In this document: piece by piece, positions 18,001-21,000 of the stretch
How the letters are laid out: each line of letters begins with the position of its first letter
Numbering within the stretch: the stretch's first letter is position 1
IMG/VR virus record: IMGVR_UViG_2671180360_000006
Reading direction: 5' to 3' (one strand)
DNA from: a virus
Lineage: Duplodnaviria > Heunggongvirae > Uroviricota > Caudoviricetes
Length of the DNA: 21,446 nucleotides
Position numbers: made by a program

Positions 18001-21000
18001 CAAATCGCCATTTTGCCATCGCCTTTACAACCTGCTCATCAAACAGATGGTGCGGCTCTGAACGGATAAACTCAATTCGGGTGACAGTACCATCAGCACC
18101 AATATCAAACTTCACATCAACCCGTCCCTTTATATAATTTGCCGCTGCATAGGCCGGATATTGTGGTAATGCCTTAACCAACTGTCGGGGCATATCTGTT
18201 TTATGTTGCGTACAGCCCATAACCAGAGAAGACAACAAAATAATTAACGGAAGATTTCTTTTCATTTTCATTCCCGGCACAGATAAGAATAAGTCTTATT
18301 CTAACAATGCCACCCTGTCGGCCATCAATCCTCTGCTTAATGGCAACGACAATTATCCGACTTAAATCACAAATCAGACACATGACATAACAGGTCTTGC
18401 GAGGTAACACATCGTCCGGTTTCTTCCACCATCGCACCGAACCAGCGACCATGAGGGGACAACGCCGCGCTCCGTTAACGCGGTAAACCCCGGTGTGTAT
18501 CGTTTTTGATTATCCCCGCACACTCGCGCAGAGGAGTCTCCCTGTCGGGCTACGGTCATGGTTAATGCGGGAATACGGCGACGATACAGCGCATAATGTG
18601 TCAGGCTTGAATACCTTTATCGAATCCCGGTAATAAAAACTGTCCCTGTCTCTCCAGACGTTCCAGCTTTGCAAGCAATTGAGGTTTTTTCGTTCTCCCC
18701 CAGCGATTGAGCAGACGGCCTGACATGCTGGCGACATCCTTCTCTTTCATGTACTCCAGCATTACGGCGTTACGTTCTGCTTCATAACTTTCGCTGTACT
18801 TACGGAGTTCTGCTGACATCCAGTTAAACGCATTGATATAGGCTTCTTTAACAGCATCGGCTTTTGCCCCGTTAAATCCCATAACCAGCATAACGAAGCC
18901 ACTAAAGTCCATGCGGTAGTAAATCTGTTTCTTGTCAAAAATACCTAAGTCATTGATTTTCTCGACGGCCCAAAAATGGGTTGTCGAGAATTCCTCAGAA
19001 CATCTCAAACATTTAATAGCCCTAATCACATGCTGATGGCGTTTACCAAATGCCCTGGCAATCTGGAAGGTGTCAGTTACCGGTTGACCTTCTGCTGCGG
19101 TAACTAACTGGCGAAAGTCGAAGTCATGATTCGCAATTAATTCATTCATGGCGTTGCCTGCTTCTTTGAAATGAACCTTTGCCGCATAGGAAACCAGCCC
19201 ACCGAGGCTCGCCAGCACTAACTGGTATCCTCAAAGGCCCATTCCAAAGGGTCAGGTTCGGTGTTTATTGTGCGCTGCGGTGCGCGGTGAAATACCGGTA
19301 CAAAAATGCCCCGCATCTGCGAGGCATTTTCCTGAAAGTCACTTGTTAAATTTCAGTGAAATTAAAATTATTTTAAGCACTGCGTCCTGATGTATTCCTG
19401 CAGGTAGTTAACCTGCGCGGTTATCTTGTCGATTCCACCTCGGAGACGGTAATAATTGAGTTCAGCATCTGCTGTAAGTCCTGGGCTTTCTCCATCGCCC
19501 ATGCTGCTGGCTCCGGTCGTTGACTTTGCACAGGTGGCGAAGACTTGCAGGCGCTTACGCCCAGCAGAAACATCAGCACGGAGACTTTCGATAGTCGCAT
19601 TAGCATCAGCAAGCTCCTTTGTGTATCTGGCGTCAAGTTCTGCTACATCACGTTGCCGCTTCTGCATATCAGCGATGATGGATGTGGCTTTATCGCGCTG
19701 CTCTTTGTAGGCGATGGCGTTATCACGGTAAAGATTAACAGCCCATGACAGGCAGGCGATAATGCAGATAACCAGAGCGGAGATAATAACGGTTACCCTG
19801 CTCATTGTTGCCCCCACAAACAGACTTCACGCTCAATCTCGCGGCGAGTCATCAGCCCTTTCCATTGCTTACCGCCAGCGTATGTCCAGCGCCGTAGCTG
19901 ATCACATGCGCTTTTGATATCGCCCTGGTTTATTTTGCGAAGAAGCGTCGATGTTCTGAAATTGCCAGCGCCCACGTTGTAAACGAACGAGTAAAGAGCG
20001 CCGCGCGTTGTTTCCGGTATATCGACGTTGATGTACGGGTTAATTTGTCTGGCGACCGTGGCAAGGTCTTTATTCAGGAGGGCTTTGCATTCTGCTTCGG
20101 TATACGTTTTACCGGGCATGATGTCTTTTCCGGTGTGTCCGTGACATACAGTCCATACGCCAACGATATCTTTGTATGGTATGTAGCTGACACCTTCCAG
20201 ACCATCGTTACCACCTGGACCAGTGATGAGCACAGACGCTATGGCAACAGCCCCACCACCAATAGCAGCTGCAACAGCCTTGCGTAATGACGGCGACATT
20301 ATTCACCTCTCGCAGCCTTACGCTTATCTTCTTTAATCTTGAAATAAAGATTTGTCAGATACGTCAGCAGGCCAAACAGCAGACTTCCCAGCACACCTAT
20401 TGCCACCCACTGGGACGGAGAGACTTTGTCCAGCAGCTGCAGTAACCAGTATCCCGTCCCCACCGCTGACGTGGTGTATGACACACCTGTTGTGATTTTT
20501 TCCATCTGATGTATGTCTCCGTCACCGCCGACAGAAAATGAAAGTAAAGAAAAACAAAAAAGCCGCCAGTGTCACCCACTGACGGCCAACGCCGGGAGCC
20601 GTGATTATGGCATTCAGGCTCTGCTAAAAATGCCAGATAACATTCCGGCCTCCCCTGATTCAGGTTATAAATGACACAATATCTTGACAACATCCGTCAC
20701 TGTCTGTCAGAAAATGTACTGCCATATAGAAGCAACATGTGAAGTACATCTATCCTTTTGAGCCAGCACCTCTCCACCGAAAGTCAGTGCTGGCTGTTTT
20801 TTTCCTTAATAAGGCATCTGTAACTGAAACAATCCGCATATTGATAATATATTGACAGGCATCATTGCTGTCTGTGAAAAATAAGTCTCTACAAACATAT
20901 AAGGCCTTTTAGCCAGCGTCTTCTTTTTCAGGTCAGTCGCTGGCTTTTTTTATTATGCTGCCGGTGCATTTATCTCCAGCATCAGACTTTCTATCTCAAC

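Follow-up and report, generated by a model that had tools for sequence, protein, structure and literature searches.

The esterase-pinholin spacer and its two units

The window analysed here is the whole of IMG/VR record IMGVR_UViG_2671180360_000006, a 21,446-nt sequence from a virus of the class Caudoviricetes. It represents the late region of a lambdoid prophage of the Shiga toxin (Stx) phage type and reads on the minus strand. The gene order runs through tail, head and terminase, then spanin, SAR endolysin and pinholin S, with the 3' end of an esterase gene upstream of S. A spacer of 447 bp separates the stop codon of the esterase gene from the start codon of S, and inside it are two short units on the strand opposite to the late operon. 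It is very probable that these are tandem paralogous genes for small RNAs (sRNAs), unit 1 being pasA of enteropathogenic Escherichia coli (EPEC) and unit 2 yielding the RNA catalogued as EcOnc51 and EcOnc52 in enterohaemorrhagic E. coli (EHEC). The genes and units concerned are the following:

19802-20299, minus strand: SAR endolysin gene (open reading frame and annotation)
20299-20505, minus strand: pinholin S gene (open reading frame; annotated as class II holin or pinholin in phage 434 and RefSeq)
20684-20803, plus strand: unit 1, 120 nt from the -35 element through the end of the T-tract
20852-20951, plus strand: unit 2, 100 nt from the -35 element through the end of the T-tract
20953-21446, minus strand: 3' end of a SASA-family (NanS-p type) carbohydrate esterase gene, stop codon at 20953-20955 (open reading frame and annotation)

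Shared architecture of the two units

Each unit opens with the hexamer TTGACA, carries a common motif a fixed distance downstream, and closes with a hairpin and a run of T residues:

20700-20707 and 20868-20875, plus strand: motif CTGTCTGT, exactly 10 nt after each TTGACA
20761-20795, plus strand: hairpin AGCCAGCAC...GUGCUGGCU of the unit 1 (PasA) intrinsic terminator, followed by a G and by U7 at 20797-20803; fold -16.3 kcal/mol, z -3.1
20911-20945, plus strand: hairpin AGCCAGCG...CGCUGGCU of the unit 2 intrinsic terminator, with U7 at 20945-20951; fold -16.5 kcal/mol, z -5.9

The motif is followed by CAGAAAAT in unit 1 or by GAAAAAT in unit 2. As a composite, TTGACA-N10-CTGTCTGT occurs twice in the window, also when two mismatches are allowed, against an expectation of 0.07 from shuffled sequence; none of 100 shuffles reached two occurrences. 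Global alignment of unit 1 with unit 2 gives a score of 48, compared with 7.8 +/- 3.7 for 1000 dinucleotide shuffles, none of which attained it (z about 11). The resemblance of the units is thus far beyond chance, and the two are paralogous.

The hairpin stems of both units are AGCCAGC/GCUGGCU, and the unit 2 terminator abuts the esterase stop codon. In both cases a G+C-rich hairpin is followed by a U-tract on the transcribed strand, as expected of an intrinsic terminator, and the record of phage 434 annotates both plus-strand hairpins as terminators. Read on the minus strand, both hairpins are followed by AAAAGG instead of a U-tract, and so they terminate plus-strand transcription only. Since the major and minor 3' ends of PasA map to these two sites, their function as working plus-strand terminators is supported. 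The two hairpins may in addition keep antisense transcription out of the esterase gene.

A preliminary description of this sequence had proposed two paralogous plus-strand units antisense to the late operon and just upstream of the lysis genes, each starting with TTGACA and sharing a motif followed by an A-run. Both points are confirmed by the sequence at 20684-20951. The same description placed a strong terminator 70-90 nt from the start of each unit; the terminators stand, and the distance does not, as the span from the -35 element to the T-tract end is 120 and 100 nt and the RNAs themselves are about 85 and 66 nt long. Its promoter claim likewise holds for the consensus -35 elements, and less well for the -10 elements, which are weak and escaped a consensus scan. 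Finally, its view that the units function as RNA rather than as coding sequence, possibly as small RNAs, agrees with the published Hfq-dependent, trans-acting sRNAs on identical sequence.

Unit 1 is pasA

The comparison with other prophages that had been suggested in the preliminary description finds the spacer identical in prophage PP2 of EPEC E2348/69 and in phage 434. For PP2 the identity is 100% over all 455 bp, which allows published features to be placed directly on the window:

20719-20803, plus strand: PasA sRNA, 85-nt major form (published coordinates 743499-743415(-) of EPEC E2348/69, transferred)
20719-20954, plus strand: PasA minor isoform of 236 nt, reading through the first terminator and ending at the unit 2 terminator (minor end 743264, equivalent to 20954)
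20762-20771, plus strand: reported PasA seed GCCAGCACCU, in the 5' arm of the terminator (Fig. S5 of PMC8550237)
20975-20985, minus strand: CUGAUGCUGGA, reported as a PasA target site in the 3' end of the esterase mRNA (Table S7, entry E2348C_0688_743175_743305)

The E2348/69 coordinates of PasA, 743499-743415(-) plus a minor end at 743264, come from RNA-seq and northern blot (Table S6, PMC8550237). The size of PasA was confirmed by northern blot, its stability depends on Hfq, and 41 partners were recorded by RNA interaction by ligation and sequencing (RIL-seq; PMC8550237). The published northern probe, GCCAGCACTGACTTTCGGTGGAGAG, is the exact reverse complement of 20771-20795. Unit 1 also has the position expected of the locus, between esterase and holin-lysozyme genes on the opposite strand, as well as the stem-loop and U-tract at the 3' end. 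Unit 1 is therefore identical to the mapped gene in spacer, probe, coordinates, flanking genes, terminator and seed, with no difference from PasA of PP2 (Pearl Mizrahi et al. 2021, PMC8550237). It is pasA of EPEC E2348/69, the gene of an already described Hfq-dependent sRNA. In that publication the downstream unit figures only as the additional 3' part of the 236-nt minor isoform.

From these features a course of events can be proposed for pasA. A sigma-70-type promoter with a perfect -35 element and a weak, possibly TG-extended -10 element would start transcription at about 20719, and the intrinsic terminator would stop most transcripts at about 20803 to give the 85-nt, Hfq-dependent PasA. 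The G between the unit 1 stem and its U-tract probably lets some polymerase past, and this minority of read-through transcripts would be caught at the second terminator, giving the 236-nt form. Through the 5' arm of its terminator, PasA would pair with numerous mRNAs in trans, and the 3' end of the adjacent esterase message would be among its sites. PasA may in this way pair with the message of the very gene on which pasA converges. The target motif CUGAUGCUGGA occupies the last codons of that esterase gene.

Unit 2 and the EcOnc51/EcOnc52 RNAs

Turning to the downstream unit, its RNA can be matched to entries in two sets of published Hfq data:

20886-20951, plus strand: unit 2 RNA, about 66 nt; EcOnc51/EcOnc52 of EHEC Sakai and 'pasA.E2348C_0688.IGR' of the EPEC RIL-seq data

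In the modelled fold of this RNA the first 25 nt are unpaired, a U-rich stretch precedes the hairpin and U7 forms the tail, an architecture typical of short Hfq sRNAs. In EPEC, 'pasA.E2348C_0688.IGR' is an Hfq-bound RNA that always appears as the second partner in chimeras (PMC8550237); its RIL-seq RNA2 fragment, 743267-743294, corresponds to window 20924-20951. In EHEC, EcOnc52 was listed in prophage Sp4 of Sakai at 1181998-1182075(-), with a predicted terminator, in the table of Hfq cross-linking and analysis of cDNA (CRAC; Tree et al. 2014, PMC4104026). In the current record this interval is exactly the body of unit 2, running just past the U-tract.

The assignment of EcOnc51, which lies in Sp12, comes from cross-linking, ligation and sequencing of hybrids (CLASH) with RNase E. 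Hybrids labelled EcOnc51 (Waters et al. 2017, PMC5286369) contain CATTGCTGTCTGTGAAAAATAAGTC and CTTTTAGCCAGCGTCTTCTTTCAGGT, placing EcOnc51 on unit 2, and hybrids labelled EcOnc52 also contain unit 2 sequence. Those labelled EcOnc35 contain sequence of PasA-2, a variant of unit 1, so that EcOnc35, in Sp4, is the Sakai counterpart of unit 1. By current RefSeq coordinates EcOnc51 would fall on unit 1; this placement was ruled out, as the CLASH sequences reveal an offset of 136 nt between genome versions. Across the chromosome, the Sakai coordinates published in 2014 and 2017 differ from current RefSeq by 0-1 nt at 1.18 Mb, +141 at 1.557 Mb and +136 at 2.237 Mb, and their direct use misplaces features. 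Sakai copies of unit 2 are identical to the one here save for a 2-nt indel in the loop and a 2-nt indel in the tail: their loop is 2 nt shorter and GGCTC precedes the T-tract.

Unit 2 has been recovered in hybrids with unlinked mRNAs by both RIL-seq and RNase E-CLASH. Both units are thus on record as Hfq-associated prophage RNAs, of which only unit 1 is northern-validated and named. What has been published on identical sequence comprises plus-strand transcripts, 3' ends at both terminators, Hfq association and hybrids with mRNAs in trans. A literature search for the unit 2 sequence as printed text returned only irrelevant matches.

Candidate promoters and the possible autonomy of unit 2

The elements assigned to the two candidate promoters are as follows:

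20684-20689, plus strand: -35 hexamer TTGACA of unit 1 (pasA), from the sequence; invariant in all copies examined
20705-20715, plus strand: weak -10 region of unit 1, from the sequence, TGt-CAGAAA (18-bp spacer) or GAAAAT (20-bp spacer)
20852-20857, plus strand: -35 hexamer TTGACA of unit 2, from the sequence, with the geometry of unit 1
20873-20882, plus strand: -10 region of unit 2, from the sequence, TGt-GAAAAA (18-bp spacer) or AAAAAT (19-bp spacer)

Both -35 elements match the consensus at six of six positions. The best -10 hexamers at a spacing of 17-18 bp match at only two to three of six, with a TG upstream, and a hexamer with four matches requires a spacer of 19-20 bp. In a rough position-weight matrix of our own, built from consensus frequencies, the promoter of unit 1 ranks 31st and that of unit 2 ranks 9th among 42,822 positions; these ranks are high despite the weak -10 elements because the -35 elements are perfect. 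Counted from the first base of TTGACA, the mapped 5' ends of PasA and of its relative PasC are both 35 nt downstream, a distance that is textbook for a start site. Counted likewise in unit 2, the Hfq peak of EcOnc52 has its edge at 34 nt, within the accuracy of a few nt that the CRAC-table peak edges have. Both promoters are putative ones of the sigma-70 type.

Whether unit 2 is in fact transcribed from its own promoter, rather than arising solely by read-through from pasA followed by processing, is less certain, and the evidence leans only slightly towards the former. In favour of an independent promoter, its -35 element is perfect, the spacing and flanking motif are as in pasA, and in the same rough matrix it outscores the pasA promoter. 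The 43 nt around the -35 element are unchanged (0/43) in the most diverged copy, a plasmid copy differing by 9.4%, compared with about 14 changes in the other 103 positions. Unit 2 also persists without unit 1 in Sakai Sp4, where it lies behind IS629, and on pO145-type plasmids. The edge of its Hfq peak coincides with the expected +1.

The leading alternative, which we consider a serious contender though somewhat short of an even chance, is that unit 2 consists of a back-up terminator with a vestigial copy of the pasA promoter, and that EcOnc51/EcOnc52 is a product of RNase E acting on the 236-nt isoform. Its proposed 5' end sits in an AU-rich, unpaired stretch, and such stretches are preferred by RNase E. 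The weakness of the unit 2 -10 element is in keeping with this alternative, as is the small size of the unit 2 signal relative to that of PasA, and the authors of the EPEC study file the unit 2 region under PasA as a minor isoform (PMC8550237). The perfect -35 element, the intact promoter stretch and the solitary copies described above speak for a separate gene instead.

Several observations weigh against the assignment of two autonomous sRNA genes and deserve to be set out together. A consensus promoter scan of the window called the promoter of neither unit; the scan finds about as many promoter-like and terminator-like matches in shuffled as in real sequence. A CLASH read covers the '-10' region of unit 2 on the plus strand, and so a read-through RNA exists that could be its sole precursor. 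In quantity, EPEC chimeric fragments number 119 for unit 2 vs 4983 for PasA, and the EHEC Hfq peak area is about 1.0-1.1 M for unit 2 vs 8.2 M for unit 1. The unit 2 signal is 2-25% of the unit 1 signal, in data where reads from identical prophage copies are not assignable to a single copy. The one northern probe in print recognises unit 1 specifically, and a separate unit 2 RNA would lie outside its reach. The limited accuracy of CRAC peak edges is illustrated by EcOnc33, another Sakai RNA, whose peak edge falls inside its own -10 element. The copies of the units are almost identical, which makes their conservation weakly informative, and one dog strain, 19KM2326N (about 560-650 of the stretch compared), has an intact unit 1 beside a decayed unit 2, in which deletions affect the -10 region as well as the arms of the terminator. 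A hypothetical protein is annotated over this decayed unit 2 in RefSeq. Lastly, a 2026 preprint (10.64898/2026.05.13.724894) attributes the PasA 5' end to cleavage of a longer transcript, which conflicts with a primary start at 20719. Counter to that statement, the long form of PasA in Table S6 of PMC8550237 is extended at its 3' end and not at its 5' end.

Relation to the lysis genes

The preliminary description had further suggested that the units restrain read-through into the pinholin and endolysin genes. Features bearing on this proposal lie between the units and S:

20548-20587, minus strand: late-sense intrinsic terminator about 55 nt upstream of S, 11-bp stem, U6GU5 (scan; fold -20.5 kcal/mol, z -4.0; also annotated in phage 434)
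20632-20649, minus strand: weaker terminator-like site
20655-20690, minus strand: late-strand promoter-like element, TTGTCA, 17 bp, TAACCT

Action in cis on the late operon could take the form of convergent transcription, with collision or occlusion of polymerases, or of antisense pairing to RNA from the esterase-S spacer, in either case limiting pinholin and endolysin. The orientation and position of the units fit such a role, and any late or esterase transcript running through the spacer contains the full complement of their RNAs. A late-sense RIL-seq fragment at window 20706-20724 indicates that such transcripts exist in lysogens, and a pairing of PasA with the 3' end of the esterase mRNA is on record. 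The geometry at S itself is less favourable. Antisense control of S in cis would call for overlap with its ribosome-binding site or coding sequence, and neither unit covers either: the units span 20684-20951, the S start codon is at 20505, and the nearer unit ends about 180 nt upstream of it. The esterase stop codon, at the other end, is touched only by the unit 2 U-tract. A strong late-sense terminator (20548-20587) already stands between the units and S, the unit promoters have weak -10 elements, and the polymerase modified by Q is, as established in lambda, highly processive. In addition, the recorded partners are overwhelmingly unlinked mRNAs, and many related phages, among them the Stx2 phages, have the same lysis cassette with a different spacer.

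Restraint of read-through into the pinholin and endolysin genes by the units thus finds no support, and cis action on the late operon as an explanation of the locus is improbable. Only marginally less doubtful is a combined version in which the units, besides their trans role, act in cis on the late transcript, uncoupling the esterase from the lysis genes and tuning spontaneous lysis or its timing. The terminator at 20548-20587 is the better candidate for an insulator, and in a lysogen it likely keeps esterase or moron transcripts made without Q modification out of the lysis genes. As for the suggestion that the resemblance of the units is incidental, with two unrelated terminators, chance TTGACA hexamers and no RNA of any importance, short matches of promoter or terminator type are indeed common and are found in similar numbers in shuffled sequence, but the motif and alignment statistics oppose it and the northern, RNA-seq, RIL-seq, CRAC and CLASH data published on identical sequence contradict it, leaving it scarcely credible.

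The promoter-like element at 20655-20690 lies back-to-back with the -35 element of pasA and ranks 10th of 42,822 positions in the same rough position-weight matrix. Together with the terminator at 20548-20587 it would yield a minus-strand RNA of about 100 nt; no published RNA matching this putative transcript was found.

Comparison with known systems

Apart from PasA of PP2, the closest relatives of the units are PasC, from prophage PP5 of E2348/69, and PasA-2. Their promoter, the position of their 5' end and their neighbouring genes are as described here, and their terminator stem and downstream flank match unit 2; PasC loci hold one unit, compared with two in the window. The preprint by Zhu, Shabalina and Storz (2026; 10.64898/2026.05.13.724894) covers PasA, PasA-2, PasC and the esterase-holin context. 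It gives PasA and PasC a common origin and describes the copies of pasA as other than tandem duplicates; unit 2 is not among its subjects.

More broadly, AgvB and AsxR (Rfam RF02702 and RF02703) are likewise short, Hfq-bound prophage sRNAs that converge on the 3' ends of moron genes downstream of PR', with a different sequence. Convergence of sRNA genes on moron 3' ends downstream of PR' has been described for EHEC prophages (PMC4104026). EcOnc33 of Sakai Sp6 (positions 880-1010 of the stretch compared, minus strand) has the same layout as the units, converging on an esterase gene with its terminator abutting the stop codon. Its promoter is TTGACA-N17-TTAAAA and its published northern band is about 71 nt; the RNA body is unrelated and the esterase allele is different. 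The lambda RNAs oop and paQ and the P22 RNA sar are also transcribed against a phage operon. Unlike the units, each of them overlaps its regulated gene at the coding sequence or the ribosome-binding site.

No Rfam family matched the window at its gathering score. Over 20450-21050, RF02702 and RF02703 gave no match at E <= 10, and the only matches at that threshold were chance ones to snoRNA- and U12-type models. Two further candidates for unit 2 were considered and rejected. As an AgvB-like sponge of GcvB, its predicted duplex energy with E2348/69 GcvB is no better than that of shuffles (332 of 500 were as good as the unit 2 5' region). HnrS (EcOnc10-12), a 66-nt multicopy prophage sRNA, lies elsewhere in the late region, and the Sakai Sp12 hnrS locus has no BLAST match in the window.

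The feature is accordingly real and already known in substance, and neither unit has an entry in Rfam or an annotation in RefSeq. The locus is a well-sampled case of a known pattern, that of Hfq-dependent sRNA genes convergent behind moron genes in Stx-type prophages, and it matters little beyond annotation. What is new is that EcOnc names can be assigned to the units, that the pasA locus is a tandem pair, and that PasC looks like a fusion of both. In particular, the names EcOnc51 and EcOnc52 denote the downstream unit and not PasA proper.

Variants and distribution

The spacer is 100% identical to that of phage 434, whose record annotates three terminators, two in the orientation equivalent to the plus strand and one on the late strand. 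It is also identical in many chromosomes of Stx-producing E. coli (STEC) and EPEC. The Stx2 phages 2851 and Stx2a_WGPS6 share about 96.5% identity with window 1-20508 only, the match ending at the S start codon. The sRNA-bearing spacer (the 20509-21446 side) travels with the esterase allele as a separate module.

Among the prophage and viral contigs collected, 26 spacers have unit 1 and unit 2 in tandem, 13 have a single unit and four have unit 2 alone. The single-unit layout is the PasC locus, in which the unit 1 promoter and a unit 1-like 5' body are joined to a terminator stem and downstream flank of the unit 2 type, the terminator again abutting the esterase stop codon. PasC reads as the product expected of unequal recombination between the shared CC-TTT-AGCCAGC segments or, alternatively, as the single-unit ancestor of a duplication. 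Unit 2 could thus be an autonomous, as yet unnamed tandem paralogue of pasA, with PasC-type genes derived from recombination between unit 1 and unit 2.

Variation among copies is concentrated in the 5' body of unit 1, where PasA differs from PasA-2; hardly any is seen in the promoters, in the terminators or anywhere in unit 2. Across the terminators of PasA, PasA-2, PasC and unit 2, two stem pairs change on both sides with pairing kept; the copies being nearly identical, covariation is limited to such compensatory changes between paralogues. In the plasmid copy, one C-to-U change in the stem keeps a G-U pair only in the plus-strand RNA.

Of 5,426 complete E. coli genomes, 692 carry unit 1, at 2,850 places in all, and 677 carry unit 2, at 2,307 places, about 100 of them on plasmids. 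A scan of one genome per species with the pattern TTGACA-N10-CTGTCTGT-N1-3-AAAA gave 61 matches, among which the tandem signature at 168-bp spacing occurs in E. albertii only. The other 60, taken as a group, are single matches in unrelated taxa, in roughly the number that chance would give. Most single matches of the motif in viral contigs are likewise attributable to chance. As judged from these scans, the family is essentially confined to Escherichia.

Two loci illustrate unit 2 away from its usual partner. In Sakai Sp4, IS629 lies 28 bp upstream of the unit 2 -35 element (positions 1502-1700 of the stretch compared), and the unit 1 copy, which is EcOnc35 of the PasA-2 type (published 1186583-1186656), lies at a distance of 4.5 kb on the opposite strand; the two units are here separated naturally. 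On pO145-13514, a virulence plasmid of about 87 kb, a solitary unit 2 is found among insertion sequence (IS) elements (positions 2490-2700) next to an 87-nt esterase stub. This copy is 90.6% identical to unit 2 of the window and its promoter stretch is unchanged.

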